This document shows, piece by piece, positions 21,577 to 64,000 of a DNA stretch of 64,000 bases (the first letter of the stretch is position 1; every line of letters starts with the position of its first letter). The translations under genes and the position numbers were made by a program. This DNA is from Alkalinema sp. CACIAM 70d (GTDB lineage Bacteria; Cyanobacteriota; Cyanobacteriia; Leptolyngbyales; Leptolyngbyaceae). The notes under the pieces are model-generated. The model saw only the letters and a program-made list of their open reading frames with translations. It had not been told where the DNA came from and did not search any database. The DNA lies in NCBI GenBank assembly GCA_002148405.1, contig MUGG01000034.1, positions 1 through 64,000 of the forward strand, read 5' to 3'.

Positions 21577-21580
21577 AACC

Positions 21581-48814: not shown

Positions 48815-49618
48815 TCAAAACCCCCGTTCCCTTTCCCATGATGCAAGCGCTGCCAATAAAATAGATTTGCGTTCCAAGATCACTCCCGATAAAATATCTC
48901 CCTCAAGAATCGTCTGGATAAACTCTAATTCATTTTCATTAAGTGCGTTACGAATTGCGAGCTGCGCTATCGCTTCAATCCGATCACTGCCATTCGTGGT
49001 TCGATAGATCTCGTGAAGCGCACACTCTGCACTCACATCCTGTGATGCACCAATTGCTAGCACTAACTCACGGCGCACTCTTTCTGCAAGATTGCTATTA
49101 CGGGAAAGCCAGAGCAATTGCTCAATCAGTGGAGAACTTTGGCCGCTGGGAGTTTCGCGCAAAACGGCAGCAGCAGCAGCAACCCACGCGCTTTCCCAGT
49201 CGGTGGTCATAGTATGATCAGGGCGTATAGAAGCTACCAGAAGACCATCCTCTGGTGTCGCAACCTTGCTCAGTATCCGAAGTGCAACAATATGTGATGC
49301 GTCAGGGATGGGTTGCCCATTCCAATGGTTTTGTCCATCAATTCCATCAATTTGCAACAGGGCAATCGCTGCCTTCCTCATGTAATCCCGCTGCAACGTT
49401 ATGCGATCGCCCATACGAGATGTGGCTTGTTCTTGAATTACCAGATCGAGCGCAAGTGCCAGAATAAGACGGTTATTCTCTTCAAAAAGGGATTCCCACG
49501 CTGACCGTTGAGTTGCTGCATCTGGTTCGAGGGTTTGGAATAGACGATCGCGCAATGAATCATTGAGATCGATCCAGGTGCCAGCGAAGTACAGAAATGG
49601 ATCTATGGGTGGTGGCAT
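48815..49618 (-). CDS. Hypothetical helical-repeat protein immediately downstream of the DUF4157 effector gene (candidate immunity or chaperone protein)
   Basis: ATG at 49618 sits 6 nt after AGGAGGG and 13 nt after the effector stop. The ORF-track version (to 49921) overlaps the effector gene by 290 nt and is rejected. The protein is alpha-helical and Ala/Leu-rich. Confidence 0.55.
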   Translation of the reverse strand: MPPPIDPFLYFAGTWIDLNDSLRDRLFQTLEPDAATQRSAWESLFEENNRLILALALDLVIQEQATSRMGDRITLQRDYMRKAAIALLQIDGIDGQNHWNGQPIPDASHIVALRILSKVATPEDGLLVASIRPDHTMTTDWESAWVAAAAAVLRETPSGQSSPLIEQLLWLSRNSNLAERVRRELVLAIGASQDVSAECALHEIYRTTNGSDRIEAIAQLAIRNALNENELEFIQTILEGDILSGVILERKSILLAALASWERERGF

Positions 49619-49631
49619 GAAACCCTCCTGT

Positions 49632-52600
49632 TTAATACGGATCATCTCGTGGAGGACGTGTTGGTGCATCCAGGAAGCGGACGGCATCGAATGGGATATC
49701 GCCTCGAATGAGAACCTCCATAGTGCGAAGTGTATCTCGCATTGCCTGCTCCTGAACAGGTGGCGCGCTTTCTGCAAAAATCCCCCAATGCTGCTGTGAT
49801 ACACGAGTACTGAGGTCGAAGATGTTGGATGATGAGATGCGGAATAAATTAATTTCGACTCGACCAGAGGTAGGACTGAAAAAGCGACGGTACTCTCCAG
49901 TTCTGCGATCGCGCGTGCCACTGCGCATGTGTTCAGTGCGGGGTACTCTACTTGTCGAGGTATAGCTGGAGTCAGCCCCCTCTACATGTTCCAATAGCGA
50001 GGCGGAAGACCCTGGTGAAACAGGTTCAATTCCTTGTCCTCGCCGGAGACGACGAGCATCCGTCTCGTTAAGATCGCGAATGACACGAGGCCCAAGATAC
50101 GCCCCGCGTGCATCCTTCACAACAATCATCCTGGTACGAATGTGACGTGCCACGTTGGCTCGACCCCTGGGATCAGGATTGGCAATGTCCACAAAGCCTT
50201 CATTGGGTGGGATAATTCTACCGACAAGAACGACACGCGGTGGAACCTCAGCAAGATGCACGCGAACCTCTCCTCGTCCCCCACTGCCCAACACTTCCAG
50301 ACGTGAACCTGTGGGAATTCCGGTGATGCTCCGGAATGCTGTATCAAGAATGACTCTAACTTGATCGATCGTATCCTCCCGGCGAAGTAAACGTAGTTGT
50401 GTACGTGATGCTTGTAAGAGGCGATCTGCAATCCAACGTTCGGCTCCCGGTTCTCGACGACCTGGCAAATCGAACATCATCTCCGGATTCACGGCTGCCA
50501 AAATGGTGATTGTGGTACCGGCTTCACGGGTTACGCTGAGTGTTGTCAGACGATATCGTCGCTTAATCAGGAGTAGCATAGGCACCAGCAACACTCGCGA
50601 TCTCCTTGCCGGATCAATCCTCCGAACTTCGGTAACAGCAGCATGTAAATCGGCTGCTTTCTCTGCGGGGGTGCGACGATCTGGCCCGCCAGAAACTGCG
50701 CTAACCACCAGCCGCCCCAGCCGTCGGGCCTGGGCCACAATCCAGTCCACTACTCGGTCTAAGGCCCGATCGATCGGTGCGCGAACACGGTTGATAATGT
50801 TGGTCACTGCATCACTGACCCGGCCTAAACCTGCAATTCTGGCTAGGAAACTAATCACTAGCGTTAACAATCCCGCCATCGTCGTTTCTACACGATTGGC
50901 AGCGGCAGTGAGAACCCCACTCGCGATCGCGCTAACAGAATCAATAAACGCCATCGCCACTTGAGCAATTTGCCGCAACCGTTCTACAAAGAACATAATC
51001 GTGTTGTAGGTGGCGATAATCGCTTGGATAAAGGCTCCCGCTGGATTGAGACTTGTGATCAGGCGTGTAATCGCTGCTTGCACGACCCGATCGCGTACAA
51101 AGGTCATAATTTGCTCCATGACCATATCCCGCAGATTCGAGAGGCTCTCTTGAATTTTTTCCCAGGCCGCCGCAGGGCCTTGGGTCACTAAGGTCATGAC
51201 AATATCAAAACCCGTTTCCAATGCCTGCACTGCGGGTTCGCCAATCACCCGGACTAATTTCTGACGAATATTTTGCCAAGTCAGGCCCAACACACTTAGG
51301 ACAAACTTGATGATTTCCCGCAAGGTAAATGCTTGGGGAATATAAATATTGGCCCCACTCATTGCCCCTGTGAGCCATCCAATTAACGAGCCGCGTAAAT
51401 GGGTCAGGAAATTGGTGGCAAACTGGCGGAACCCTTGAATGCCAGCCCGCACTAAGTTCCCCACAAAGCCGATCGGATTTTGGATAATGCTGCGGAAGGC
51501 TCCAGCGGCTCGGCGGATGTAGGGCATTGCCCCAGGAGCCACGACTTCGAAGATAATTTGCAACAGGCTCATCACCTGCTGTCCTGCCCAGGAAATAAAC
51601 TGTCCGACAAAATTTGCAAACACCGTGCCTACCCGGACAAAGGCCCGAGGCAACAGCACAATATCGGCAATTTCCAGCGATTGCAGCGCTTGAATAAACA
51701 ACGTCGGAATTTGCCGCACAAAGCCGAGTAACCCTGCCAACGCTCCCTGGAACCAAGCCCAAGCCCGCGCCACCGCATTGGCCCGCTTCAAGTTGTTCCA
51801 CACTTCTTCCTGGCCGATCAGCTTCATGAAGCCGCCGATCAAGGTATCCGCATTGCGCGGCACGGGATCACCCGTAATGGGATCTTGTCCCAGCACGGCC
51901 TTCAGCAAGTCATAGCCTCGGGTGCCCTCCGCCAAACGGGCCAAAGGACGCAGAATGGCTTCTTTGACAAAGCGAATAATCCCTGTGACTAAATTGCGGC
52001 CAAAACTGATGATGCGATCGATGGGTTCCGTAAAGATGCGTTTAGCCCGATTCCACACGCCCCCCAAATCGAAAATATCCGTCCAACTGAGGGAGTCGAG
52101 GAACTGGTCGATCGCCTGCCGAATCACCGCTCCCGTCATTCCCAGGCTCTGAATTTGTTGCTCAATCCAGGCACCCACTCGATCGAAAACGCCGTAATTA
52201 TCCAGCGCTTGAGTAATCAATCCACCACCGGGTAAAAATTCTACGATCGCCCGCAGAATATTGGCCGCACTGCGTTCCACCCGGCTCATGTTAATGGGGT
52301 TCACCCCCAAAATAATCGTAAACATCCGGAAGCCGGGAATCAGATTGGCCTTATCCGCAAAGTAATCCAGCGCATCACTGAGGCCCAGTCGTTGTACCTG
52401 GACGGGAGCCTGCTGCGTCACCGAAACTGGCGTTACAGAAACCGCTTCGCGGCGCTGAATAGCTGCCCCTTGCTGAATCGTGTGGGTCAATTCGTGGGCG
52501 ATTAATTCTTTGCCTTCCTGGATATCGGGTTTAAATTTGTCCTTGCCAAAAAAGATTTGATTGCCGACGGTGAAGGCTTGGGCGTTGAGTTGGCGATTCA

Positions 52601-53144
52601 GTTTGGCCGAGCGATCACCCGTGTGAATTTTGACCTGGCTAAAATTGGCCTGGAAACGCGGTTCCATAAATCGCCGTACTGTCAGCGGTAAGGGTGCTCC
52701 CGTGGCTGTGCTGGCTTGAATTTCTGCGGCGACATTCGAGGCGACATTGGGTTGACCTTCTGCTTTGCGCTGAATCCGATCGTCTAGATTGCGCTGGGTG
52801 AAAATGCCCGTATTGGCAAAGCGTTGGATATAGGGTGACTGGAGTGATCGTTGAATTTTTTTATCTTTCTCCTTTTCCTCCGGCTTAACTTGGCGAAAAA
52901 CGCTGCCTTTCTCCGTGCGAACGTAGGAAATGGAACTTTCGGGTACCGCCATGCGCATAATTTTCTGCGCGGTACGATCGGCTTCTTTTTCAGCGGGATC
53001 GTGGGGGGAAGAAACCTTCATCGCTGATTGGCACTGCACTTTTGCGGCTGTCGCAACCACCTTCCGCTGAATCCGAGGGGCAGCAGCGGGTTTCGGCTGA
53101 GGGGAGGCCGATCGAGTAGCAGTTTTGTGGCGAGCCGTTTCCAC
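49632..53144 (-). CDS. Large (1,170 aa) DUF4157-domain protein with HExxH motif, a long helical middle region and an Arg-rich C-terminal domain. Putative eCIS-delivered effector/toxin.
   Basis: Residues about 150-260 read GAPLPLTVRRFMEPRFQANFSQVKIHTGDRSAKLNRQLNAQAFTVGNQIFFGKDKF...ELIAHELTHTIQQG. This is the DUF4157 signature, including the HELxHxxQ zinc-peptidase-like motif. The start is GTG, 10 nt after AGGAG. The C-terminal 330 aa are Arg-rich with a YTSTS motif. The gene lies directly downstream of the eCIS ATPase. Confidence 0.75.
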   Translation of the reverse strand: METARHKTATRSASPQPKPAAAPRIQRKVVATAAKVQCQSAMKVSSPHDPAEKEADRTAQKIMRMAVPESSISYVRTEKGSVFRQVKPEEKEKDKKIQRSLQSPYIQRFANTGIFTQRNLDDRIQRKAEGQPNVASNVAAEIQASTATGAPLPLTVRRFMEPRFQANFSQVKIHTGDRSAKLNRQLNAQAFTVGNQIFFGKDKFKPDIQEGKELIAHELTHTIQQGAAIQRREAVSVTPVSVTQQAPVQVQRLGLSDALDYFADKANLIPGFRMFTIILGVNPINMSRVERSAANILRAIVEFLPGGGLITQALDNYGVFDRVGAWIEQQIQSLGMTGAVIRQAIDQFLDSLSWTDIFDLGGVWNRAKRIFTEPIDRIISFGRNLVTGIIRFVKEAILRPLARLAEGTRGYDLLKAVLGQDPITGDPVPRNADTLIGGFMKLIGQEEVWNNLKRANAVARAWAWFQGALAGLLGFVRQIPTLFIQALQSLEIADIVLLPRAFVRVGTVFANFVGQFISWAGQQVMSLLQIIFEVVAPGAMPYIRRAAGAFRSIIQNPIGFVGNLVRAGIQGFRQFATNFLTHLRGSLIGWLTGAMSGANIYIPQAFTLREIIKFVLSVLGLTWQNIRQKLVRVIGEPAVQALETGFDIVMTLVTQGPAAAWEKIQESLSNLRDMVMEQIMTFVRDRVVQAAITRLITSLNPAGAFIQAIIATYNTIMFFVERLRQIAQVAMAFIDSVSAIASGVLTAAANRVETTMAGLLTLVISFLARIAGLGRVSDAVTNIINRVRAPIDRALDRVVDWIVAQARRLGRLVVSAVSGGPDRRTPAEKAADLHAAVTEVRRIDPARRSRVLLVPMLLLIKRRYRLTTLSVTREAGTTITILAAVNPEMMFDLPGRREPGAERWIADRLLQASRTQLRLLRREDTIDQVRVILDTAFRSITGIPTGSRLEVLGSGGRGEVRVHLAEVPPRVVLVGRIIPPNEGFVDIANPDPRGRANVARHIRTRMIVVKDARGAYLGPRVIRDLNETDARRLRRGQGIEPVSPGSSASLLEHVEGADSSYTSTSRVPRTEHMRSGTRDRRTGEYRRFFSPTSGRVEINLFRISSSNIFDLSTRVSQQHWGIFAESAPPVQEQAMRDTLRTMEVLIRGDIPFDAVRFLDAPTRPPRDDPY

Positions 53145-53187
53145 GGATAGGGTACTCCTGAGGGGAATGAGGTTTTGGGAATAAGGG

Positions 53188-54669
53188 TTATAGCGTTCTG
53201 CCTTCTTTGACCAATTCTCGACGTATGCCTTCTTCTAAATCCGTTAATAAAAGAGTATGTTCGTGGCGACTGAGGGCTTTGAGGGAAACGTAGCGCACGA
53301 CATTCATAATCGTGCCCCCCGACAAATCGTATTTTTCTGCAATGCGATGTAGCTCAATTCTATCTTCTAAAACCGCCTTAGGAGAGAAGGCATTTTGCCA
53401 AATTTGTAACCGTTCTGCCGTCTTGGGCATGGGGAAATGCACGATCGATTGAAAGCGGCGAATAAAAGCGTCATCAATGTTAGCTTTGAGGTTAGAGGCT
53501 AAAATAACGACGCCGTTAAAATCCTCAATGCGTTGTAACAAAAAACTAATTTCCTGATTGGCATAGCGATCGTGGGAATCATCCACCTTTGTACGTTTGC
53601 CAAAGAGGGCATCGGCTTCATCAAAGAACAAAATCCATTGTTTATGTTCCGCGAGATCGAAAATTTTCGCTAAGTTTTTTTCAGTTTCACCGATGTATTT
53701 AGAAACAATCATACTGAGATCAATTTTGTAAACATCACAGCCACAATGTTTCCCCAGTAAGCAGGCAGAGAAGGTTTTTCCCGTTCCCGGTGGGCCATAG
53801 AACAGGCTGGTAAAACCCGGTCGGAGGCGATGGTGCATTTCCCACCCTTGCAGCAATTCCTGCCCGTACAAAATCCAATGTTTAATTTCGTCCAACTGCT
53901 CCAAGGTGGAAGCAGGCAAAATTAAATCCTCCCAGTCCAGATGGGTTTCGATTAAACGGGCGGGAAATTCGCTATTAAAATTAGGTTTCCGATCGACGCC
54001 CGTGGTCAAGCGATGCAACCATTCCGGTGACAGCACCAGCGCCCCACTCAGTAACGGTTCCCCCGCCGCCACCGGAGCCAAATGGAGTATTTGCAAGCGG
54101 GCAAACCGTCGATCACCTTCAAATAAACGCATTAAGTCAAATCGGCGAATTAAATCATCTCCCGCTAGGATAAATGCAGCGGTTTCACCGGTGGGAATGA
54201 AGCCGCCATGGTGATTGCCTTGGATGCCTCCGAATTCTGTAAATCCCCGATCGATGGCTTCATTCTTGCTCCACAACACATCTAACAATTGCGGTCGTAC
54301 ATGGGGAATCAACGCCAGAATCAGGACCAACCGTTCTTCCGGCAGTAGTTCAAATTGTCGAATCAATCGCCCATAGGCCGATGGACTTTGGCTGAGATCC
54401 GGGGGTGGCGGGTGATCGGCGGCTGGAATGGGCTGGGAGATGCTTGCTGATGGGTCAGGGGTAAGTTGGAAATATTGATTCAGTCTTGCATTTAAAACAT
54501 CAGCGAACCAATTGAGTTCCTGTTCCAAATCCTGGGCATTTTTATGATTCATCAATTTGGCATTAGCATGCTGTTGAACCCGATCGTCGTGATGGCCATC
54601 TAGGCGATCGGGTGATACTGGATTGTGACTCTGCTGGCTAGAATTCATAGGCTTTAAATCACCGTCCAT
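53188..54669 (-). CDS. AAA+ ATPase, eCIS Afp15/Pvc15-like
   Basis: The C-terminal AAA core reads LFYGPPGTGKTFSACLLG...ILFFDEADALFGKR...VVILASN. The N-terminal about 250 aa are non-ATPase. The start overlaps the upstream gene stop by 16 nt. Confidence 0.8.
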   Translation of the reverse strand: MDGDLKPMNSSQQSHNPVSPDRLDGHHDDRVQQHANAKLMNHKNAQDLEQELNWFADVLNARLNQYFQLTPDPSASISQPIPAADHPPPPDLSQSPSAYGRLIRQFELLPEERLVLILALIPHVRPQLLDVLWSKNEAIDRGFTEFGGIQGNHHGGFIPTGETAAFILAGDDLIRRFDLMRLFEGDRRFARLQILHLAPVAAGEPLLSGALVLSPEWLHRLTTGVDRKPNFNSEFPARLIETHLDWEDLILPASTLEQLDEIKHWILYGQELLQGWEMHHRLRPGFTSLFYGPPGTGKTFSACLLGKHCGCDVYKIDLSMIVSKYIGETEKNLAKIFDLAEHKQWILFFDEADALFGKRTKVDDSHDRYANQEISFLLQRIEDFNGVVILASNLKANIDDAFIRRFQSIVHFPMPKTAERLQIWQNAFSPKAVLEDRIELHRIAEKYDLSGGTIMNVVRYVSLKALSRHEHTLLLTDLEEGIRRELVKEGRTL

Positions 54670-56234
54670 TCTGTATAAAGCGGTTGGGCCATCCAGGGAA
54701 GTTTGATAATACTAATGCTCCAAGGCAGTTGGTTGAGTAGAAGATCAAAGGCTGCTTTTTCCGGTTGTAAATACCAGCCTTGATCGCGTTCCCGAAGTAA
54801 GGCCGATCGCTGTAAAAAGGAGGTTTGTAGACCCTCTACAGATGTGTTTTTTAAGGCACTCCAGTGTTCAATGACCGATTGCAGTAATGTAATGGCTTCG
54901 CTACGATCGCTCACTTGTAGTAATCCTTCTGCAACTAACAGAGGTGTTTCAGGACGTAGCCCCAAAAGAATTTTAATTAACATCAAATCATATTCATAAA
55001 TTCGATCCCGCCCTGTGGCAAGGAAATAGAGTAGGGCCGCTGCGCGGGGGAGGTGCTCACTGAGAATTTCGTTACCTTGGGCGATCGCTAAATGACTGAA
55101 CAGTTGCGGCAAAAAAGGATGGATAATCACCAATCCGGCTTGGGTGACTAACCAGGGGAATGCTGGTGAGGTGGGATTATGAGCAGGGATAGGGGTGGGA
55201 GAGATAGGGGGTGGGAGGGTGATGTTTCTATCAGCCGTTTCCTGGGGAGGTTGTAGGGGGGAAAGCGGCAAGGCTGGACTCTCCTGGGAAAGATGCGGTG
55301 TTGTCGATTCAGATGTTGCGAGATCGCTCCGATCCGTGACTTGAGAATCTCCTGTTACGAAAGGTGAGGTTCGATCGAATGTTAAGGCTGAAGAAAGTGG
55401 GACGGGTAAGGTTGTAATCCAATCGCGGAATTTGGACTGGGAGATTGTAGGTAATGTGCCTCCAACCATCTGTAGAAAATTTGGTAAGGCAATTGAACTT
55501 GGAACTTGCAATCCAATTGATAAGCTAGCGGCAAGATAATGGAGACGTGTAGGACGATCGAGGGAAGAAGATGCGATCGCTAAAATTGCGCTGACCAACG
55601 GAATGACGACAGTTCTACAAGTCTCAGGGACTCCCTCTAGCAACGCTTGGATGAGATGGGGAACATCAGAATCGGGCAGCAATTGCAGCCAGCGGAAATA
55701 GAAGGCGGGAGATTCTGCATAGGTTTGGAGATAGGCGATTATCTGGGACGATCGCGTTGCACATAACTGGCCCAATTCCTGAGCAACGATTTCTGCATTC
55801 GGCTGGGCAGCATACCAAGGCAGAATGCCCGTGCGAAGGTACTGCAACAGACTCTCCCATTGATTGAGATCGGGATTAGATAATTGCCGCTGGGGTGGCG
55901 CGCTATCTATGCCGACTGAGAGTGAGAATTCTGGGTGCTGCGAGGGATCGGCCAATTGTTCCTGGAGGGCTTGGCGTAGACAGTCTGGGAACTCTCGCAC
56001 CAGCCATTCTCCCAAGGATTCGGAGGGTGGCACCTGAAGCCGTAGGTGTAGCTTTGGAATATGTACTAAAGCATCAGGCCCGTAGGCTCGATCGAACACC
56101 TGCTCCAACACAGGAAGCAATATGTTTTGCCAATCTTCTGCTAACTGTTGGCGCACAGCAAACGCATCACTGACGGAGTGAGTCGAAACCTCCCAGCGTA
56201 ATCGCCGAATCCTATGGGAACTCTGCTGATTCAT
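54654..56234 (-). CDS. Putative contractile-injection-system tape measure (Afp14-like) protein
   Basis: It has a strong SD (AAGGAGGTGAA before the ATG). The conserved-looking N-terminus reads HRIRRLRWEVSTHSVSDAFAVRQQLAEDWQNILLPVLEQVFDRAYGPDALVHIPKLHLRL, and the C-terminus reads ...IIKLPWMAQPLYTEW. These flank a Pro/Ser-rich low-complexity middle. The gene sits immediately upstream of the AAA ATPase, as afp14 does. The assignment comes from remembered family patterns and was not verified. Confidence 0.45.
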   Translation of the reverse strand: MNQQSSHRIRRLRWEVSTHSVSDAFAVRQQLAEDWQNILLPVLEQVFDRAYGPDALVHIPKLHLRLQVPPSESLGEWLVREFPDCLRQALQEQLADPSQHPEFSLSVGIDSAPPQRQLSNPDLNQWESLLQYLRTGILPWYAAQPNAEIVAQELGQLCATRSSQIIAYLQTYAESPAFYFRWLQLLPDSDVPHLIQALLEGVPETCRTVVIPLVSAILAIASSSLDRPTRLHYLAASLSIGLQVPSSIALPNFLQMVGGTLPTISQSKFRDWITTLPVPLSSALTFDRTSPFVTGDSQVTDRSDLATSESTTPHLSQESPALPLSPLQPPQETADRNITLPPPISPTPIPAHNPTSPAFPWLVTQAGLVIIHPFLPQLFSHLAIAQGNEILSEHLPRAAALLYFLATGRDRIYEYDLMLIKILLGLRPETPLLVAEGLLQVSDRSEAITLLQSVIEHWSALKNTSVEGLQTSFLQRSALLRERDQGWYLQPEKAAFDLLLNQLPWSISIIKLPWMAQPLYTEWTVI

Positions 56235-56345: not shown

Positions 56346-59105
56346 TTACCGCAACAAATTGCCCAACGTGACTTTTAGTCCAGTGTTCTTAGTTTGTTTT
56401 TGCAATCCAACCAAATTATCCTGCACCCCCTTCAGCGTATCGGCTTGGGTGATGGATTTCATGCTGTCAGATACGGTCAGCATTGCCTGTAATCCTTCAC
56501 TATTGCCGGATACATCCACTCCAGTGGTGGAAATGTAGTTGGTTGTATCCTGAATCGATCGGGCTAAGAGCACTTCCGCATCCTTCGCCTGCTGTTCAAA
56601 CAATTTACGTTGATCGGCGGGAAGATCGGGCTGCTGGGCTTTTTGTCTGAGAATATCGACCTTTTGGCGATTCAGTTCTGTCTCACTCACCTTGACTCCC
56701 AGTAATGGATCAGCAAAATTTACACCCACTTTGTCCATGGTTCGCTTAGTAATCACATTACTGGTTAACGTAACGGAATCTTGGAAAATCTTGAGATAAT
56801 CCTTCTGAACCACGTCACTCATTAACGTAACAGATTGTTTAAATACATCAAAGTAATTCTTCTGGAGATTTAATTTTTCCTCCCAAATTGGTTCAAATTC
56901 CCGTTTGAATCCAGTAATTTTGTCTGTAAATACAGTGCTGAGTGAAGGGATAACCTTCACACCATTTTCAATAATCCAATCCGGTCGAATCGTGGGTTTC
57001 GTCCAAGTTAAATCCTCGGCTTCTTCTTCCACCACATCCTCCCAGTAGTAGGGCAACATAAAGTCTGCGACTACCGTTTGGCTACTGTCATGCACCAGGA
57101 TAAAGGTTCCTCCCCGCACGACTCCGCCAAAATGCTCGATCGCAGTATGGTCAGCGACAAAATTCTTGAAGAGTAGCTTGTCATCGGCCTTTTCATCCTT
57201 GCGTTTAATCAAATCATCCAGCCAATCCAACCATTGCAGATGAGTTTGACTCAGAATTGAATCGAAGGGTGTGGTAAATTCTGTTTTCACCACATCACTT
57301 AAATTAAATTTGTATTCCCCTGCTGTCCGTAATGTATCGCTCAGATCCGTTTTCCATGAGGCATCTGCCACATAACTGGAATAGCTCCGGTTCAGTTTGG
57401 TGCGACTTGTCGTTACTTTCCCTAAAAGAACATTGTTGCTCTGTTCCGCCGCTTGCCTTAAGGTTGAAGCATTGCTCTCCTGACCCACATTGGCATCCAC
57501 CATTTTCTTGAGCCGATCGCTAAACTTACCCACCTCGTCCAATTGGTGAAACGCATCCCGCCGCAGGACGTAGTGGAAGCGATGCAGATCGGTGTAGCGA
57601 ATTCCCGGCTTCTTGACCACCCGCGATCGCTCACTCCCCAGCAGCACTGTACGCACCGTAAACGGTAAATTCCGGGCCGCAATTTCCTGCTCGATCGCCG
57701 CGATCGCTGCCGTTACAGGTTGCCCCAAGTGCCCCTCAATCCGGAAGAAGGAAAACCGCCCCAGTTGTGTCGTTAGCGGACTGGCTGCGCCCCCTTTGGC
57801 GCGGTAACTGCTGGCATGGTAGGAATAGTTATACTCATCGCGACGACGCTGGTGTAGCTGATAGTTCCAAGCACTGTGGATGGGAAAGCGCCCGTTCGGT
57901 GCGTAGTAATAGGGAATGGCCCGATCTGCGAGGGGCTGATCCTCAAACAGGCTCGGTGTAATGCGAATGGCTGTTCCTGCGGCAGGGACTTGGAAATTCT
58001 CAATCAGCGCATTCAATGTTTGCAACAGGAACTTAGCCTGATTGAGGTGATCGATCGTGGAACTGGTAATGGGCGAGGGATAAAATCCAAACCGATTTAC
58101 TTCCGGATCTTCTCCAGGAATTAAATTACCCAATAGTAAATGCTTTGGGAAACTATCGGGATTAGGACAACACCAAGTTTGATCGTCCCAGAGCCGATCG
58201 CGAAATTGGGTATAGGTTTCCGCGACATCCTTCAGAAAGTCATAGTAATACTGAATTCCAAACGAGTTATTACCGCCAAAAGTGCGATTTCTCAGGTTGT
58301 TGAGCTTTGTAACCCAGGTGGGAGCCGGATCACTGGGAAAGATGTCAGAGATAAACGCTGAACAATTGGGATAAATTTTGCCCAATGCTGCAACTAGTCG
58401 ATCGTGAATGGTATTACAAGTCGTGCGATAACGTTGAGCCAGCTCACTTAAGGTACTGAGATTGGTCGGAATGGTGACTCGATCGACGGTAACGTCATCC
58501 AGTTGTGAAAATGCTTGGTGGGGTGTGGGAATATCTGGCTGTAGGGTTTTGAGAGCGGATTGATCAACTAACAGTAATCGGGGTGTGTTGAGGCGATCTT
58601 TACCTAAATTATCGCAATCGGTGCCAGAACAGAGATCATCATCTTTTTCGTAGCTTTCCATTAACAGCAATGCTACGAGTGTATTTAAACTCGTCCCTGT
58701 AGGAAAACTAAAATCCTTGAGAGAAGTTCCGTCAGGGGTTTCAGGGCTGTGGGGCAGCAATTCATAGACCGTAATCATCGTATTTTCGATGTAGAACGGT
58801 GCATATTTTGGTTTGGAGGCATCGTAGGGCTGGATGCGATCGAACACTGTGTCCTGGGCTAAATACAGCAAATCCCCGTCGGTCGTCAGTCCTACCCCTT
58901 TCGTGACAATGACCTGATTCTCCTGGACTGTAACCCGTAAACCCGCAGCAATGCCGACACCCAAGCCAAATAGCCGCGTCAGCCGCGTTTGATCATCAAA
59001 GTAATCGGAAAGACTGTTGAGCTGTTTTTCCGTCAGAACTTGGTCAGGCTCAAAAACGCTATAGCCTGTGGTAATTTGTTTCAGCAACTGAAGGGTGTCG
59101 GTCAT
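56346..59105 (-). CDS. Hypothetical structural protein of the eCIS-like operon (in the Afp12/Afp13 position), containing internal about 20-aa repeats
   Basis: The ATG at 59105 lies 8 nt after AGGAG. The track ORF, extended to 59225, reads through a 13-nt DNA tandem repeat and is probably not translated. No known motif is recognised. Confidence 0.5.
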   Translation of the reverse strand: MTDTLQLLKQITTGYSVFEPDQVLTEKQLNSLSDYFDDQTRLTRLFGLGVGIAAGLRVTVQENQVIVTKGVGLTTDGDLLYLAQDTVFDRIQPYDASKPKYAPFYIENTMITVYELLPHSPETPDGTSLKDFSFPTGTSLNTLVALLLMESYEKDDDLCSGTDCDNLGKDRLNTPRLLLVDQSALKTLQPDIPTPHQAFSQLDDVTVDRVTIPTNLSTLSELAQRYRTTCNTIHDRLVAALGKIYPNCSAFISDIFPSDPAPTWVTKLNNLRNRTFGGNNSFGIQYYYDFLKDVAETYTQFRDRLWDDQTWCCPNPDSFPKHLLLGNLIPGEDPEVNRFGFYPSPITSSTIDHLNQAKFLLQTLNALIENFQVPAAGTAIRITPSLFEDQPLADRAIPYYYAPNGRFPIHSAWNYQLHQRRRDEYNYSYHASSYRAKGGAASPLTTQLGRFSFFRIEGHLGQPVTAAIAAIEQEIAARNLPFTVRTVLLGSERSRVVKKPGIRYTDLHRFHYVLRRDAFHQLDEVGKFSDRLKKMVDANVGQESNASTLRQAAEQSNNVLLGKVTTSRTKLNRSYSSYVADASWKTDLSDTLRTAGEYKFNLSDVVKTEFTTPFDSILSQTHLQWLDWLDDLIKRKDEKADDKLLFKNFVADHTAIEHFGGVVRGGTFILVHDSSQTVVADFMLPYYWEDVVEEEAEDLTWTKPTIRPDWIIENGVKVIPSLSTVFTDKITGFKREFEPIWEEKLNLQKNYFDVFKQSVTLMSDVVQKDYLKIFQDSVTLTSNVITKRTMDKVGVNFADPLLGVKVSETELNRQKVDILRQKAQQPDLPADQRKLFEQQAKDAEVLLARSIQDTTNYISTTGVDVSGNSEGLQAMLTVSDSMKSITQADTLKGVQDNLVGLQKQTKNTGLKVTLGNLLR

Positions 59106-59134
59106 GGCCATCGCTCCTGTGGATCTGGGGTCTG

Positions 59135-59186: not shown

Positions 59187-59244
59187 CGTTTTCCGCTGGG
59201 TCAGGTTCGAATCTTCTCTCAGCAAATGGCAATCTATGGGACGT

Positions 59245-61851
59245 TTATGTATCCGGTTTTAAATTTTCTCCTGTTCCTAAATTACTCCGTCCTAAAATGA
59301 ATTTGGGTTGATTTTCTTCACTATCACAATCCCGTAACCGTCGCGGGGGATAAACATTCTTCACAGCGAATAAATGGTCAATCCAGTTCTTCAGTTTTTC
59401 CGATCGCTGCGTGCTATTCACACCCGCTTTGAGATGAATCCAGTCATAGTATAACTTTTCAAAAATCGCCATGTTTTCTGCATTAATCCAGCAGATTTTG
59501 GGCAGAATATGGGCCGGAGTTTCTTCCCGAATTACCTGCTCTGCAAAGCGCCGAAAGGCCATATCACTGAAGCGACTCCCATAATCTGGCAAAATAATAT
59601 GAATGCGATAGGAATAGGGATCGGCTTCTGCACAGTCGCTACAATTGCTATCCACACAAATCGGTAAAAAGGGATCAGTTTCTTCCTCGGGTCGGAGCAG
59701 AATATTCTCAATCAAATACATCCCTTCATCGCTGTAATTAACCTGAAGATAGTGCAGCACTTCATCGATCGCCTGATTCATCTGATCTTCCGTGTCAAAA
59801 TACTCAATACGCCGTGCCACGACTTCGCCTGCATCATCAATCACATTGAAATAATGCTTGGCATTGCTGCTGATTTTTCGATCGTAATTTGCCGGGGACA
59901 ATGCAAACTTAATCGCCCGTTCCATGGCTTGTCGGGCTAGCACCTGCGTTTCGTAGTTGCGACTACTGCTGAGGATAATGGCTAGGGTATCCCGGTTGCG
60001 AATGCGAAAACGGAATTCATTTTCAGGGGTACTGTCAATTTCAGCGTAAATGTCGTAGGCAATGTCTCCTAAATTCCGGCGTTTGTAATTTTGAATTCCT
60101 AAAAGCTTGGCTAGACGCTTCTCTAGGCCAGATACATTTTCGCTATTCCATAAATCACCTTCCCCTTGTAGCGTATAGTTGTAGGCCAGCGATCGCTCAC
60201 TGCTAATTTCCGGGTAATGCTTCAGAAAATCACACTTATAACGAATCAAACTCTCTGCACTGGTACCAAAGGCTGAATACAGCGTGTAGGCCAGATCATG
60301 GAACTGTTCTGCAAAGCGTGCAATTAAGTGATCTAAAAATCGATTGCGACGATCGAAGCCTGAAGTTTGCTCCTGGCTATCCTGCTGGGTTTGCAGCGTG
60401 CGAATGACCTCAACGGGATCACGGTCTTCTGTCGTGTGATAAATGGTTTGGTAATTTGAAAAAGAATCGACTACTTGATAGAAATAGGTACGGCGTAATT
60501 CCGGATCGATCGAAAATAAATCCTTCACATGGTGCAACTGGGCAAAATAGTTGGCCATGATTTGATCGAAAAAGAGTAAATAGGCTTTTAACTGGTAGGC
60601 CAACGCTTTGCGAGTTGAATCCGCATTGCTGGGTAAACCCTCCTGACTCAAACCATAAATCGCTGGGAAATGGTTCTGAAAGGAGTAATAGCGATCGAGG
60701 CTGCGGGGATTGCCTGGAGGAATCGGTAAATCGTCGAGGGTAATGGCTTCGGCCTTCACCGTCACGGCTTGCGTCAGTTCGGCATAGAGACGATTCACGC
60801 GATCGCGGTTGGCCACTACGGGCATCTGCCGTTTGTAAAAGACCAGCCGAGACTGATCGCGATCGAGCAGAGCTTTGTGCTGGGCTGCCACGGGAACCAC
60901 CCATTTCGTTGCCAGCGGCACCTCCGTTCCAGCAGGATTGATCACAATCTCCCGCACTGCCTGCACCCCTGGAATATCCATCACGATGCTAATCACATCC
61001 GAGAGCCGAATTTCTGTGCGTAGTTCCGCTTGGGCTAATTCCCCATCATCAATAAAGCCACAATTTAATGCAGGGCCATCAAAGATTTCATCGATCGTAT
61101 AGGCTGTACCGTCGGCCTTTTTGCGGGATAGCATTTCACTGAGGCGATAGTTTCTCACGCCGGGAGCAAGATACTGCTGGACTTGGAACCAAATTTCCGC
61201 ATTCACCTTGGCGACATCCGCATCTGGAGTGAGTTCGAGTTCGGCACATAGTAGAAAATTCTGTGTTGTAATTTCTTCTAATGCAATGAAATCCTCACAA
61301 AGATTTCGATTAGCCTGTAGACATTGCCAAACTAATTTCTGAATGGCCTCTTTTTCAGCATTAGTATTAATCCCATCCATGTACTCGATTGTGACTTTAT
61401 ATAAGCCTGCCAAGTTTACAGGAAGAGTTCGATCGATTTCTGAAGGGCCGTACTGAAGCTGCTTTTGAACGAGGTTGGCGTAATAGGTAATGGTTGTAGG
61501 GTTGATCCAAGCATTTTTGACACCGGGTAAATCAATCAGCAACTTCCGGTAGTCTAAAACTGTTAAAGCGCGGTTAGGCAGAATTTGTCGTGCAGTGAAA
61601 AAAGTATCATGATTGAGCGCAGGATCACTGGCTAGGATATCCGCGATCGGGAAAGATGCGCGATAACTCAAATCCGTGAGGGCATAACACAATAATTCTA
61701 AGGTGGTGATTCCAGGATCGTGAACGTTGTAGTCCGTCCAAATCCGCTGTGCTAGTTGCTGCACCTGCTGTAAGCCTGCTGCATAGAGATGTTGATGATC
61801 TAGGGCTGCAGGGCGATTATGTTTTTGCGGAATAGTCAGTTGAGACAACAT
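59245..61851 (-). CDS. Hypothetical large (868 aa) protein of the eCIS-like operon, possibly a baseplate component (Afp12-like position)
   Basis: ATG start, 53 nt after the upstream gene. The N-terminus reads WTDYNVHDPGITTLELLCYALTDLSYR. The C-terminal Cys cluster is PICVDSNCSDCAEADPY. The assignment rests on synteny only. Confidence 0.45.
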   Translation of the reverse strand: MLSQLTIPQKHNRPAALDHQHLYAAGLQQVQQLAQRIWTDYNVHDPGITTLELLCYALTDLSYRASFPIADILASDPALNHDTFFTARQILPNRALTVLDYRKLLIDLPGVKNAWINPTTITYYANLVQKQLQYGPSEIDRTLPVNLAGLYKVTIEYMDGINTNAEKEAIQKLVWQCLQANRNLCEDFIALEEITTQNFLLCAELELTPDADVAKVNAEIWFQVQQYLAPGVRNYRLSEMLSRKKADGTAYTIDEIFDGPALNCGFIDDGELAQAELRTEIRLSDVISIVMDIPGVQAVREIVINPAGTEVPLATKWVVPVAAQHKALLDRDQSRLVFYKRQMPVVANRDRVNRLYAELTQAVTVKAEAITLDDLPIPPGNPRSLDRYYSFQNHFPAIYGLSQEGLPSNADSTRKALAYQLKAYLLFFDQIMANYFAQLHHVKDLFSIDPELRRTYFYQVVDSFSNYQTIYHTTEDRDPVEVIRTLQTQQDSQEQTSGFDRRNRFLDHLIARFAEQFHDLAYTLYSAFGTSAESLIRYKCDFLKHYPEISSERSLAYNYTLQGEGDLWNSENVSGLEKRLAKLLGIQNYKRRNLGDIAYDIYAEIDSTPENEFRFRIRNRDTLAIILSSSRNYETQVLARQAMERAIKFALSPANYDRKISSNAKHYFNVIDDAGEVVARRIEYFDTEDQMNQAIDEVLHYLQVNYSDEGMYLIENILLRPEEETDPFLPICVDSNCSDCAEADPYSYRIHIILPDYGSRFSDMAFRRFAEQVIREETPAHILPKICWINAENMAIFEKLYYDWIHLKAGVNSTQRSEKLKNWIDHLFAVKNVYPPRRLRDCDSEENQPKFILGRSNLGTGENLKPDT

Positions 61852-61904
61852 AGTTCATAAACCTGATTCAGAATGGGATTCGACAACCAGAACAAGTCAA
61901 CTAA

Positions 61905-63959
61905 TCATGCAATGGGATGAATGACATGACTCACATCGGAAATAAGGATGGTATCTGGGCGTTCAGGAGAGACCTCACTAACATCAATCAAGTTATTGGT
62001 TTCACCGCTATAGGTATAAACTTTAAAATCAGTTAAATAATCCACATAGGAGAGTTCCTCTACAAAATCTAACAGAACCGATTTATAAACCTTGCCCCCA
62101 AAGGAAATCGGACGATCGGCATCAAAGGCCCAGGGGGATAGGAATTCCTGTAAGGCTTGCTGTAATGCTTTTTGATAAAAGTTAAATTCATAGCCGGGAC
62201 GAAATTGCACTCGGCAATCCACTTGGATTTTCTGATAGAGCGGATTTTTTACCTGAACCTTGACCTGCATCCCTCGTCGATCGTTGACGTAATCCGTAAT
62301 TTGTTGCAGCGTTACGGCATCAACTTTGGGTTGTAGGGGATTGGCTGCATTCTGGTTGTGTAGATCGGGAACGACAACGAGTAACACATTGCCCGGTGCC
62401 AGCCACACGCCATCCTTGGCATGGGGAATACATTTCACTTGATGAATCTGGGGAAAGGCTTCCAGCACAATGCGCTCATAGTCCCAAGCAGTAATACAAC
62501 GGTTTTTATGGCGTAGTCGTTCTGAGGCACGAGTTTGCAAAGGCCGATCGGCTTCGATCGCCCGTCCTCCAAAGGAAGCATAGGGTTGGGTAATGGCTTT
62601 AATGCCAGCCACTGTGGTTTTGAGCTTACTGATTTTTCCGGGTTCCAATGGTGTTAGTAAATGCTTGGGATCATTTCCCTGATCCTGAAACTGTACTTCA
62701 ATCGCATTGGCTACTACCTGAACTAATCGACAAACCGCAGTGACATTGTTACGAATCGCTGCTTTAATCCAGATTTGCTCTTTCGGTAGAATCGTATTTT
62801 GTGTTGTTGCTTTAGCTGGAATGATGAACTGAATGACACCACTGGTTAATAACTGCTGTGTTGTATCTAGGACGACTGAGCTACGATCGAGTAATTGCCA
62901 ATAATTATCTCCCAGGACCAACCAATCCAAGCTTTCCCTGGCTATATCTGGATTAGCGCTACCTTCTGCGACTTGAAAGAGCAGACTTACACTCTCTCCC
63001 GGCTGGAGACCTTGTAATCCGATGAGCAATTCCCCAGCGTAGGTATAGTTGGGGACTAGAGAAATGGTAGCCGCTAAATTAAATTGGGTGCGTTGGAAGC
63101 CATGTTCCCGCATTTGCCCAAAATAGGTGATGTGGAAAAATTGGATGTCCCGATTGGTAAAGTCTTCTAATACGTTGGATGATAACGGTACCGCATCGGA
63201 CTGGGCTTTGTAGGACAGGGAAATCGTTTGAATCGTTGGCGTGTAGGGTTCATTGAGAATGGTAAGTGTGCCATTGGATGACTTACTATAGGTCATCACA
63301 TTTTCCACATACTTCGTGCGGTAGGTGGAATGCAGAAAATCCCGTTCCAACGCAAAGGTGATAAATCCCGATCGAGCCTCCGGTTCAACGTTGACCAAGG
63401 GGATAAAAACAGGATTCCACAACAGGTACTTACTCACGAAATTAAACGCCCACAGACTGCCGATCGTATTGAAGGCGTAGACCTCCATCCCCGCCCGCAA
63501 TGCAGGCGATACAGAGGGCGTCCCAGGGGTGAATTGAAACACTCGCTCAACCGTAGCATTATTGCGGTCGAACAGCCGTTCACCTGTCCCCGTGTAATGC
63601 CAAGTTCCCCCATCGTTAAATGCGACTGCTGCGGTAAAGCTGGAATTGGTGATGCTAGTTCCATAACCGCTGTAATGGGTTGCCAAATTTGGGTTAATGC
63701 CTTTCCATTTGACGGCTAATTTAAGTTCCAGCAACTTTTTGCTGAGGGCCTCGGGATAGCCCACTCGGAAGCTGGAGCCGATCGTGGGTTGGGTGCCAAA
63801 GGGTAGGAAGGGGCGTTTTGGATTGAGGATACCGTCATCACTTTCCAGTTGTAAACTAGTAATCCCGGTGACCTCAACGGCAATCTGGGCTGTCAGTAGC
63901 GAAATCCCTTGCCAATCGAGATAGCTCAGCGTTGCATCAGGATTAAGAACAACCTGCAA
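61905..63959 (-). CDS. Putative baseplate wedge protein (gp6/Baseplate_J, Afp11-like) of the eCIS-like operon
   Basis: A 684-aa beta-rich protein first in the visible operon. Its size and position upstream of the tape-measure and ATPase genes fit Afp11. The apparent start is TTG, so it may be translationally coupled to an upstream gene beyond the window. Not confirmed by motif. Confidence 0.4.
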   Translation of the reverse strand: MQVVLNPDATLSYLDWQGISLLTAQIAVEVTGITSLQLESDDGILNPKRPFLPFGTQPTIGSSFRVGYPEALSKKLLELKLAVKWKGINPNLATHYSGYGTSITNSSFTAAVAFNDGGTWHYTGTGERLFDRNNATVERVFQFTPGTPSVSPALRAGMEVYAFNTIGSLWAFNFVSKYLLWNPVFIPLVNVEPEARSGFITFALERDFLHSTYRTKYVENVMTYSKSSNGTLTILNEPYTPTIQTISLSYKAQSDAVPLSSNVLEDFTNRDIQFFHITYFGQMREHGFQRTQFNLAATISLVPNYTYAGELLIGLQGLQPGESVSLLFQVAEGSANPDIARESLDWLVLGDNYWQLLDRSSVVLDTTQQLLTSGVIQFIIPAKATTQNTILPKEQIWIKAAIRNNVTAVCRLVQVVANAIEVQFQDQGNDPKHLLTPLEPGKISKLKTTVAGIKAITQPYASFGGRAIEADRPLQTRASERLRHKNRCITAWDYERIVLEAFPQIHQVKCIPHAKDGVWLAPGNVLLVVVPDLHNQNAANPLQPKVDAVTLQQITDYVNDRRGMQVKVQVKNPLYQKIQVDCRVQFRPGYEFNFYQKALQQALQEFLSPWAFDADRPISFGGKVYKSVLLDFVEELSYVDYLTDFKVYTYSGETNNLIDVSEVSPERPDTILISDVSHVIHPIA

Positions 63960-64000
63960 AATGGGATCGGTGGTAGTGTAGGTATAGCCATGGATCGCGG

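Follow-up and report, generated by a model that had tools for sequence, protein, structure and literature searches.

Contractile injection system genes with probable toxin–immunity cargo in the cyanobacterium Alkalinema sp. CACIAM 70d

Positions 48815–64000 of the 64-kb window (the whole stretch of DNA analysed here) from Alkalinema sp. CACIAM 70d hold, on the minus strand, the distal genes of an operon for a contractile injection system (CIS). Alkalinema is a filamentous cyanobacterium of the Leptolyngbyaceae, and we think it probable that this region is the 3′ half of a single phage-tail-like CIS operon, comprising the baseplate, tape-measure, loading-ATPase and cargo genes, with cargo of the toxin–immunity kind. 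The first-pass annotation had proposed the distal half of an Afp/PVC-like operon running past position 64000, and curated profiles together with homologues of solved structure bear this out. The seven co-directional minus-strand ORFs that it placed there are indeed present:

61905..64000, minus strand: cis11, gp6-like inner baseplate wedge protein with Baseplate_J domain; C-terminal ~697 codons only, running off the window end
59245..61851, minus strand: cis12, gp7/TssF-like outer baseplate wedge protein, 868 aa, from PDB sequence matches
56346..59111, minus strand: cis19/alg19-type baseplate-attached fibre or 'crown' protein, 919–921 aa, from PDB sequence matches
54654..56234, minus strand: cis14, tape-measure protein (TMP), 526 aa, Pfam CIS_TMP (PF19268)
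53188..54669, minus strand: cis15, AAA+ ATPase with a putative role in cargo loading, 493 aa, Pfam AAA
49632..53144, minus strand: DUF4157 (eCIS_core) cargo/effector, a polymorphic toxin, 1,170 aa, 100% identical to Alkalinema sp. CACIAM 70d protein B0A82_04145 (NCBI)
48815..49618, minus strand: helical HEAT-like protein of 267 aa, which its Shine–Dalgarno (SD) sequence, position and co-variation make the candidate for cognate immunity, identical to NCBI protein B0A82_04140

The operon is a well-supported member of a well-catalogued type of machine; the machine itself is not new. Gene identities and synteny are established directly for this locus. Pfam searches returned Baseplate_J (4.6e-13), CIS_TMP (5.9e-94), AAA (1.3e-27) and eCIS_core/DUF4157 (PF13699, 6.1e-30), and four markers of the Afp/PVC class are found in the window: the Cis11/Cis12 wedge pair, a CIS-type TMP, a dedicated AAA+ ATPase and DUF4157/eCIS_core. 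Contractile phage tails and type VI secretion systems (T6SS) likewise contain Baseplate_J and the gp25, sheath and gp19 tube domains. A myovirus prophage represented by its tail module, an R-type tailocin and a T6SS are the alternatives here. We regard all three as extremely unlikely, given the CIS_TMP, eCIS_core/DUF4157 and Cis15-type ATPase matches, the Pvc16_N cap gene in the orthologous locus described below, and best matches that are to CIS structures rather than to phage. Moreover, the 20 kb downstream and the orthologue's 9 kb upstream contain no genes for capsid, portal, terminase or lysis proteins, and TssJLM-type membrane-complex genes were not seen.

The genes of this Afp/PVC-class operon are tightly packed, with 53 nt between cis11 and cis12, 111 nt between cis19 and the TMP gene, a 16-nt overlap of the TMP and AAA genes, 43 nt between the AAA and DUF4157 genes and 13 nt between the DUF4157 gene and the small gene, in agreement with the range of −16 to 111 nt annotated earlier. 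As in Afp of Serratia entomophila and PVC of Photorhabdus, the distal genes run from the baseplate wedge pair through those for fibre, tape measure and AAA+ ATPase to the effectors at the 3′ end. An order of afp11–afp15 followed by effectors had been proposed; the baseplate pair, TMP, AAA and effector positions stand, but the Afp13 slot is taken by the Cis19 family. Because the gene after cis12 belongs to the Alg19/Cis19 family, the order is cis11-cis12-cis19-cis14-cis15, not afp11–15. The same order, with DUF4157 at its end, is found in loci from Nostoc, Brocadiaceae, Thermoanaerobaculia, Prolixibacteraceae, Competibacteraceae, Pirellula, Geotalea and Burkholderiales. The Alkalinema locus also differs from Afp and PVC in having no Afp13-type adenovirus-like fibre and a much larger Cis11, and in an effector that carries DUF4157, which Pnf and Pdp1 lack. 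The cap gene is 5′ in the orthologue from A. pantanalense, whereas it follows afp15 in Afp.

The window ends inside cis11. The cis11 frame contains no stop up to base 63998 of 64000 ('AIHGYTYTTTDPILQVVLNPD...'), and the residues beyond the TTG codon that had been taken as its start align inside the 1,020-aa orthologue from A. pantanalense. The 684-aa first gene starting at that TTG, 41 nt from the edge, is thus an artefact of ORF listing. Since orthologues are 1,016–1,025 aa long and the frame is open to the edge, some 320–340 N-terminal codons must lie beyond the window. In PDB sequence searches, Cis11 matches Algo11 (7aeb_G, 7e-116) and All3317 of the thylakoid-anchored CIS (tCIS) of Anabaena (9e-101), as well as Pvc11 and Afp11, the latter two weakly but significantly. 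The closest available orthologous locus is that of A. pantanalense L001, whose Cis11 is 89% identical. There, the 9 kb upstream encode, in order, a Pvc16_N cap, a 335-aa protein of no known identity, the sheath, two gp19 tubes, a CIS_tube protein (tube initiator), VgrG, PAAR and gp25, ending with Cis11. The sheath, tube, spike, PAAR and gp25 genes predicted upstream of the window are therefore all found in this orthologue, in the expected order.

Cis12 is collinear end to end with Alg12 of AlgoCIS (Algo12, 7aeb_A; 3.4e-153), and has weaker, still significant matches to Pvc12 and Afp12. Its match to All3315 of tCIS (1.8e-139) covers only All3315 residues 9–741 and 1075–1333. With residues 742–1074 unmatched, Cis12 is short of ~330 aa of the tCIS extension (All3315 residues 610–1100). 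For the gene after cis12, we considered and rejected an Afp13-type fibre. Over its residues 48–531, the product matches 9wt0_a (5e-60), a PKD-domain protein of 1,443 aa whose PDB entry also contains the baseplate protein Alg12; it matches All3314 (Cis19) of tCIS less well (4.6e-38, ~residues 320–534 only). No Pfam family matched this protein, which is kept at full length in 10 loci from many phyla. The gene most likely starts at M39 or M41 (59111 or 59105) instead of the upstream TTG, since it is so called in near-identical contigs and the PDB alignments open at residue 48; the protein annotated as 959 aa is accordingly 919–921 aa long.

The first-pass annotation called the system extracellular, which is a putative trait; related contractile systems of cyanobacteria are intracellular and membrane-anchored. 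The host and the strong matches of Cis11, Cis12 and the Cis19-like protein to All3317, All3315 and All3314 raise the question of whether the Alkalinema particle is anchored in the same manner as tCIS of the likewise filamentous Anabaena sp. PCC 7120 (PDB 7b5h; PMC8894136), which is held in thylakoid pores and fires only after lysis into a 'ghost'; in both systems, moreover, DUF4157 effectors are encoded beside the cluster. We nevertheless consider a thylakoid anchorage quite improbable. In tCIS, Cis13 is a transmembrane fibre, but the 53-nt cis11/cis12 gap holds no ORF for a Cis13 with a C-terminal transmembrane helix, and prediction gave no transmembrane helix for the available part of Cis11, for Cis12, for the Cis19-type protein or for any of the 13 structural proteins of A. 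pantanalense L001. The missing stretch of Cis12 is part of the wide thylakoid-connector extension, only ~215 residues match Cis19, and the Alkalinema locus has a Cis15 ATPase, which is absent from tCIS (PMC8894136, Suppl. Table 1).

With no Cis13 anchor, a Cis12 without the extension and Cis15 present, the Alkalinema system more closely resembles AlgoCIS of Algoriphagus machipongonensis (PDB 7aeb/7aef/9wsz/9wt0), an eCIS of subtype Ib (PMC8894135), than Anabaena tCIS. The full-length Alg12-type Cis12, the Alg19-type fibre base and the Cgo-type cargo layout of AlgoCIS are all found, the two systems share the Alg15/Cis15 ATPase, and the Cis11 orthologues (~1,020 aa) are close in length to Algo11 (1,050 aa, with its cage extension). 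The fibre protein matches the 9wt0_a chain with its N-terminal ~480 residues; at ~920 aa, however, it lacks the PKD/Ig-like C-terminal part, and its own last 400 aa differ, being rich in helices and without a Pfam match. The host also differs, being a cyanobacterium.

Cis14 matches PF19268 over residues 6–523 (316 bits), with the whole profile covered, so that the earlier tape-measure-like call is upheld. Cis15, correctly described before as an AAA+ ATPase with an N-terminal non-ATPase domain, has a single AAA domain (aa 289–413) after an N-terminal domain of ~250 aa. It is syntenic in 12 loci, between the TMP and cargo genes, and 56–96% identical across all syntenic loci. By analogy with work on Alg15/Pvc15 (bioRxiv 10.64898/2026.05.27.728243; PMC11495950), its role would be cargo loading. 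In AlgoCIS, the cargo Cgo1/Cgo2 is located in the tube lumen (PMC8894135), and both the disordered N-terminal domain of the cargo and Alg15 are required for loading.

The Alkalinema cargo resembles Cgo1/Cgo2 in layout, with a disordered N-terminus, DUF4157 and a long C-terminal region (Cgo2 has 1,228 aa). It was recognised earlier as a 1,170-aa DUF4157/HExxH protein, and eCIS_core indeed covers aa 151–227. Its parts are as follows:

52695..53144, minus strand: putative loading sequence, the first ~150 aa, of low complexity and, from composition, predicted to be disordered
52464..52694, minus strand: DUF4157/eCIS_core domain with HExxH (HELTH), from Pfam
50505..52463, minus strand: conserved trunk, aa ~228–880, from homologue alignments
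49635..50204, minus strand: C-terminal toxin domain, aa 981–1170, predicted ADP-ribosyltransferase (ART) fold of the RhsF-CT family, from profile comparison

Disorder-promoting residues make up 70% of aa 1–100, and by analogy with the N-terminal domains of AlgoCIS Cgo1/Cgo2 this region may serve as the loading sequence. The trunk is 59–92% identical across phyla, a level that equals or exceeds that of the baseplate proteins encoded alongside; hydropathy points to hydrophobic helices at aa 729–776, and no sequence relative of the trunk was found in the PDB. The 2,940 cargo homologues have aa 1 to ~800/890 in common and then split into differing Pfam domains at the C-terminus, toxins for the most part (Ntox15, PF15541, Endonuclea_NS_2, AHH, RNAse_A_bac). 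The trunk is present in 120 of 120 cargo homologues among the matches listed, and the closest relative, 92% identical there, carries an unrelated tail. Alignment ends cluster at aa 800–820 and aa 880–900, giving two preferred fusion points. The cargo is thus a polymorphic toxin, with a trunk kept across phyla and a swappable C-terminal domain, an architecture observed directly at this locus. Toxins associated with eCIS and carrying an N-terminal DUF4157 were surveyed by Geller et al. 2021 (PMC8213781); as here, predicted activities include ADP-ribosyltransferases, and some have adjacent immunity genes. What was termed a 'linker' in that survey is in the Alkalinema cargo a strongly conserved trunk of ~650 aa rather than a spacer.

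The toxin tip has an RhsF-CT-like ART fold with conserved catalytic-type residues. We take both the ADP-ribosylation by RhsF-CT of Chromobacterium violaceum (PDB 9ZDM) and its target to be themselves only presumed. A profile of the toxin family matches RhsF-CT (9zdm_B) at 4.9e-16, and the candidate catalytic residues R1023, S1063, F1089 and E1143 align to R1403, S1445, Y1456 and E1497 of RhsF. Three of the four are kept and invariant among 23 family members: the Arg, the STS/STT-motif Ser and the Glu within the 'xEVLI' strand, while the position of the catalytic Tyr1456 is Phe in the Alkalinema toxin. Weak Pfam matches were obtained for family members, to DUF7587 in 18/23 and Scabin-like in 6/23; the window protein's own toxin domain has no Pfam match, and Foldseek E-values for it are weak (best 0.012). 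From its sequence, the tip is a predicted ADP-ribosylating toxin. RhsF-CT/RhsFi (bioRxiv 10.64898/2025.12.06.692724) also has an immunity-type gene directly downstream of the toxin. The two toxins differ in delivery, RhsF-CT being the tip of a T6SS Rhs protein and the Alkalinema toxin that of a DUF4157 CIS cargo, and in an extra N-terminal beta-region of ~25 residues in the latter. For AlgoCIS, an ART-fold toxin and an immunity-like gene at the cargo end are unreported for Cgo1/Cgo2.

The small gene directly downstream had been noted for its SD sequence, and AGGAGG indeed lies 7 nt before the ATG at 49618, 13 nt past the toxin stop. The 368-aa ORF listed for it would run 290 nt into the toxin gene; its correct coordinates are 48815–49618, for a product of 267 aa. 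A protein of 254–267 aa directly follows this toxin tip in 6/6 loci, the two genes overlapping by up to 4 nt or lying up to 14 nt apart, so that toxin and immunity candidate are observed to co-occur; a differing tip is followed by an unrelated 193-aa gene instead. Pairwise or profile matches place five of the six in one family, and the sixth (L020) is marginal (E=0.003). Homologues occupying the same slot after the same toxin domain come from Sphingomonas (2e-24), Pseudanabaena, A. pantanalense and two metagenome contigs. For the 267-aa protein, searches gave neither a functionally characterised relative nor a PDB relative, and similarity to RhsFi was thus not detected. We infer that it is most likely an immunity protein that blocks the toxin in the producer. 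If so, the target is also present in bacteria, and the role of the toxin is probably antibacterial or kin-protective. Many validated eCIS toxins, however, have no immunity genes and several kill yeast (PMC8213781), HEAT-like repeat proteins are frequently scaffolds, and among the relatives of the toxin, pertussis toxin, EcPltA and CARDS toxin have targets in eukaryotes. That the 267-aa protein is instead a chaperone, adaptor or co-effector, and the toxin aimed at eukaryotes (grazers) rather than bacteria, is in our judgement unlikely.

Going by the AlgoCIS and tCIS structures, Cis11 and Cis12 would form a six-fold baseplate wedge ring round the VgrG/PAAR spike. The Cis19/Alg19-type protein would sit on the baseplate in trimers, as a 'crown' or short fibre that probably touches the target, and Cis14 would set tube length. 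Cis15 may recognise the disordered cargo N-terminus and thread the cargo into the tube lumen, and a sheath presumably encoded past base 64000 would, by contracting, push tube, spike and cargo into the target cell. We tentatively suggest, as a possibility, an AlgoCIS-type cyanobacterial particle for interbacterial antagonism with cargo built like Rhs/CdiA: a machine-matched, highly conserved DUF4157 trunk of ~880 aa would be a universal delivery, possibly membrane-translocation, module bearing interchangeable tips at two fixed points, with an ART tip in common with T6SS Rhs effectors and a previously undescribed HEAT-like immunity family. To our knowledge, no target or effector activity has been demonstrated for any cyanobacterial CIS. 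An antagonistic particle would be the first such system with a predicted activity and class of target, and would provide a rule for cargo engineering by tip-swapping. CIS clusters occur in ~40% of cyanobacterial genomes, and a cyanobacterial CIS tried on many organisms had no effect (PMC8894136); an RhsF-CT-type ART tip with a dedicated immunity gene offers a specific, tractable hypothesis of a bacterial target. Treating the DUF4157 cargo 'linker' as a conserved module with defined fusion points also bears on the re-programming of AlgoCIS/PVC for protein delivery.

Lastly, the locus had been described as flanked by a degenerate IS and a histidine-kinase scar, and both are there: a split ISAzo13-family transposase at 42055–43250, and a kinase remnant with in-frame stops on the plus strand at ~48480–48717 ('...ETGLGLAIS*AIVDNHHGTIQVESQVNYGITMQVALP'). 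The horizontal acquisition read from these flanks is weakly based. The IS element is 5.5 kb from the locus with two unrelated genes between, and GC content is unremarkable. A second Alkalinema species has both the locus and the C1-peptidase gene that neighbours it downstream, so any acquisition predates the split of the two species.

The stretch at 48815-64000 (minus strand) had been read in the first-pass annotation as the distal half of an Afp/PVC-like contractile injection system (CIS) operon, and Pfam profiles together with PDB sequence matches indicate that this interpretation is essentially correct. Seven co-directional minus-strand ORFs were found as claimed, and their spacing agrees with the -16 to 111 nt given for it: 53 nt between cis11 and cis12, 111 nt between cis19 and the tape measure gene, a 16-nt overlap of the tape measure and ATPase genes, 43 nt between the ATPase and DUF4157 genes, and 13 nt from the stop codon of the latter to the small gene that follows.

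Genes of the CIS operon within the window, with their principal matches
61905 to window end, minus strand: cis11; Baseplate_J (4.6e-13), Algo11 (7e-116) and tCIS All3317 (9e-101), with Pvc11 and Afp11 also matched
868 aa, minus strand: cis12; AlgoCIS Alg12 end to end (3.4e-153), tCIS All3315 (1.8e-139), Pvc12/Afp12 weakly
919-921 aa, minus strand: cis19/Alg19-type gene; 9wt0_a (5e-60, over residues 48-531), Anabaena All3314 = Cis19 (4.6e-38)
526 aa, minus strand: cis14, tape measure; CIS_TMP, full-length (5.9e-94)
493 aa, minus strand: cis15, ATPase; AAA (1.3e-27)
49632..53144, minus strand: cargo, 1,170 aa; eCIS_core/DUF4157 at aa 151-227 (6.1e-30)
48815-49618, minus strand: candidate immunity gene, 267 aa

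Some of the gene models had to be corrected. The TTG start 41 nt from the edge, and with it the length of 684 aa for the first gene, proved artefactual: the frame is open to the last in-frame base ('AIHGYTYTTTDPILQVVLNPD...'), and the residues preceding that TTG align to the interior of the Alkalinema pantanalense cis11 orthologue ('ATHGYTYTTADPVLQAILNPD'). Orthologues of cis11 encode 1,016-1,025 aa, and cis11 is truncated by the window end, with approximately one third of the gene lying beyond it. For the ORF listed at 959 aa, the practical start is M39 or M41 (59111 or 59105), yielding the 919-921 aa of the gene call used on near-identical contigs; the PDB alignments begin at residue 48. A listed 368-aa ORF was rejected, as 290 nt of it lie within the toxin gene, and the real gene is the one encoding 267 aa. 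An AGGAGG stands ahead of its start, as expected from the Shine-Dalgarno sequence noted earlier, and its product is identical to NCBI B0A82_04140, while the cargo is 100% identical to the hypothetical protein B0A82_04145 of Alkalinema sp. CACIAM 70d (a MAG, Leptolyngbyaceae), both being encoded on a 97.5-kb contig.

The proposed afp11-15 gene order held for the baseplate, tape measure and ATPase genes, but not for the third gene as Afp13. Because its product matches both 9wt0_a, a 1,443-aa PKD-domain chain that shares its PDB entry with the baseplate protein Alg12, and All3314, we assign it to the Alg19/Cis19 fibre or 'crown' family, of which AFP and PVC have no homologue (PMC8894135). Its C-terminal ~400 residues gave no Pfam match and no predicted transmembrane helix; they are helix-rich by eye and conserved full-length across phyla. 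Neither the Cis19-type protein nor the 267-aa protein matched anything in Pfam or NCBIfam, and the same databases returned no family for Cis12, only weak N-terminal matches to DUF1508 and TIGR02243.

Among cyanobacterial systems, the thylakoid-anchored CIS (tCIS) of Anabaena is the obvious point of comparison. Weiss et al. characterise the anchored mode by the transmembrane fibre Cis13, an extension of Cis12 (residues 610-1100) and the Cis19 crown, and their table gives the tCIS no Afp15-type ATPase (PMC8894136). In the window, by contrast, there is no gene between cis11 and cis12, so no Cis13 position is filled; Cis12 lacks a counterpart of All3315 residues ~742-1074; and Cis15 is present. 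No transmembrane helix was predicted in the baseplate/fibre proteins of the window, where weak hydrophobic segments occurred in the tape measure and ATPase alone, nor in the 13 structural proteins of the orthologous A. pantanalense cluster. The missing Cis13 gene and transmembrane helices, the gap in Cis12 and the presence of Cis15 thus point, as far as genes can tell, to a system like that of Algoriphagus machipongonensis (AlgoCIS) rather than to a tCIS.

The sheath, tube, spike, PAAR and gp25 genes predicted upstream of the window end are all present in A. pantanalense CENA528, the best available proxy for the source genome (identities of 89% for Cis11, 88% for Cis12 and 92% for Cis19). There, reading towards cis11, the 9 kb ahead of it code for a Pvc16_N cap, a 335-aa protein, the sheath, two gp19 tubes, a 53-aa ORF, CIS_tube, VgrG, PAAR and gp25. 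The 53-aa ORF, between the gp19 tubes and CIS_tube, is possibly Cis6, and a PDB search with the 335-aa protein between cap and sheath found no relative. A still closer metagenomic contig (L015, 98-99% identical) carries the same distal genes, and loci from Nostoc, Brocadiaceae, Thermoanaerobaculia, Prolixibacteraceae, Competibacteraceae, Pirellula, Geotalea and Burkholderiales likewise have their genes arranged as cis11-cis12-cis19-cis14-cis15-DUF4157. The system belongs to a well-catalogued kind of machine, with eCIS loci in >1,200 genomes (PMC8213781) and CIS loci in ~40% of cyanobacteria (PMC8894136). What the analysis adds are the corrected gene models of the operon half, its AlgoCIS-like instead of thylakoid-anchored assignment, and a cargo of trunk and swappable tip, with a predicted RhsF-CT-like ADP-ribosyltransferase and a HEAT-like candidate immunity family.

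We compared the cargo with the best 120 of its 2,940 homologues. These are 53-92% identical to it over aa 1 to ~800-900 and diverge beyond. The points at which the alignments end fall into two clusters, aa 800-820 and 880-900, taken as preferred toxin-fusion points. The divergent tails carry varied Pfam domains, mostly toxins (Ntox15, PF15541, Endonuclea_NS_2, AHH, RNAse_A_bac). Judged from this shared N-terminal part and the swapped tails, the cargo has the architecture expected of a polymorphic toxin. The so-called 'linker' of the DUF4157 cargo, here termed its trunk (50505-52463, minus strand; aa ~228-880), is 59-92% identical across phyla, and within the same loci across phyla it reaches 59-79% identity, whereas the baseplate proteins reach 34-65%. 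Conservation equal to or exceeding that of the baseplate argues that the trunk is a functional module and no mere spacer. Hydrophobic helices are found within it at aa 729-776; a phmmer search of the PDB with the whole cargo, trunk included, found no relative. Disorder-promoting residues are strongly over-represented in the N-terminal ~100-150 aa. Loading of the AlgoCIS cargos Cgo1/Cgo2 requires the N-terminal domain and Alg15, with DUF4157 being dispensable, and the disordered cargo N-terminus would fit a putative loading sequence of this kind.

Among cargo homologues, the tail at aa 881-1170 is common only to Sphingomonas (65%), Pseudanabaena (30%) and, in part, A. pantanalense. When 1.84 billion representatives were scanned exhaustively with HMMER, the toxin tip had just 39 relatives; a word-index search returned one fragment and missed known relatives, and is given no weight as a negative. 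In most full-length matches the ~150-residue core ends the protein or is followed by no more than a few dozen residues, with a longer tail in, for example, the relative P0137. Across an alignment of 23 members, R1023, H1053, S1063, D1137, R1140, T1141 and E1143 are invariant. The tip profile matches PDB 9zdm_B at 4.9e-16, the toxin at the C-terminus of RhsF from Chromobacterium violaceum. This antibacterial T6SS effector has an ART fold in which R1403/Y1456/E1497 are catalytic and S1445 contributes in part, and its active site is occluded by its immunity protein (bioRxiv 10.64898/2025.12.06.692724). In the alignment to RhsF, R1023 corresponds to R1403, S1063 to S1445, F1089 to Y1456 and E1143 to E1497. 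Weak Pfam matches were also obtained on single family members (DUF7587 in 18/23, Scabin-like in 6/23).

Values for the toxin tip against individual proteins
TreX (Rhs toxin): 8.6
CARDS toxin: 8.3
EcPltA: 8.1
Scabin: 7.6
Pertussis toxin S1: 7.5
DarT: 7.0

The same proteins took the top ranks in Foldseek, with weak E-values. A single-sequence AlphaFold model of aa 881-1170 was discarded (pLDDT 32). The tip (aa 981-1170) is a predicted RhsF-CT-like ADP-ribosyltransferase.

In 6/6 loci with this tip, the next gene encodes 254-267 aa, at spacings between -4 nt (overlap) and 14 nt. The 267-aa protein is 28% identical over 252 aa (E=2e-24) to the protein after the same tip in Sphingomonas sp. SUN019, and its family profile matches the A. 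pantanalense counterpart P0162. The family also occurs in two metagenome contigs, where the upstream genes end '...RTMEVLIRGEIP...' and '...RTSEIMIRGRIP...'. Membership of one family is firm for 5/6; that of the Pseudanabaena counterpart depends on a marginal match (E=0.003), and this counterpart shows a faint HEAT_2 match. A phmmer search of the PDB with the 267-aa protein found nothing. The sister locus L015, 98% identical, differs in its toxin tip, and the 193-aa gene downstream of that tip is unrelated. Since co-variation with the toxin tip is the standard signature, we consider the 267-aa gene a candidate cognate immunity gene, and the co-variation implies a toxin predicted to be able to harm bacterial cells. 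The Sphingomonas locus (CP096971.1 6001-10121) is an alphaproteobacterial CIS locus with the same ART tip (65%) and immunity family (28%), while its upstream structural genes differ (a 657-aa ATPase, a collagen-like protein), which is evidence that the toxin-immunity cassette moves between otherwise different CIS loci.

The flanks had suggested horizontal acquisition. The histidine-kinase scar is indeed there, as a C-terminal HATPase_c remnant with in-frame stops at ~48480-48717 (plus strand; 'ETGLGLAIS*AIVDNHHGTIQVESQVNYGITMQVALPELEH'), convergent with the CIS operon, directly 3' of the immunity candidate and absent from the A. pantanalense intergenic region. Beyond it follow a C1 papain-like peptidase, a TIR-TM-WD40 protein and a split ISAzo13-family DDE transposase (42055-43250, plus strand; ORFs of 96 aa and 242 aa). 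The degenerate IS is thus real but no direct flank, being 5.5 kb off with two unrelated genes between. Recent acquisition is not supported, because the locus and its peptidase neighbour are common to two Alkalinema species; the GC profile of the window carries no island signature. From the synteny table across phyla, ancient inter-phylum transfer of such clusters is evident. A promoter/terminator scan of 46300-49700 remained at background level.

The peptidase (46460-47977, minus strand; 505 aa, with a ~200-aa N-terminal extension) adjoins the CIS locus in A. pantanalense too. We considered it as a second cargo and do not count it in the CIS, because its N-terminus is unlike the toxin N-terminal domain and not markedly disordered. 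Its leader (47978-48330, minus strand; ~230-350 nt) has >90% DNA identity between CACIAM 70d and A. pantanalense, a level that by eye seems to exceed that of the coding DNA next to it. A 98-aa ORF there (47902-48198) has only 77% protein identity, so the stretch is probably non-coding; it has no Rfam match and an unremarkable fold stability (z=-0.56). The neighbouring 963-aa protein (43456-46347, minus strand) has an N-terminus that is TIR-like by eye, with no TIR profile match listed, one predicted transmembrane helix (aa 240-258) and 13 WD40 repeats, an architecture reminiscent of defence or signalling proteins; at 21551-23485 there is a second WD40 protein, of kinase-WD40 type. Elsewhere in the window the genes are those of an ordinary cyanobacterial chromosome (sensor kinases, Mur ligase, BtpA, M16 peptidase, PadR, YkuD), among them a 2,684-aa sensor unrelated to the CIS (1132-9186, plus strand; Ser/Thr kinase, AAA_16, GAF, several PAS, HisKA, HATPase_c and receiver domains), after which come two hybrid kinase/receiver genes.
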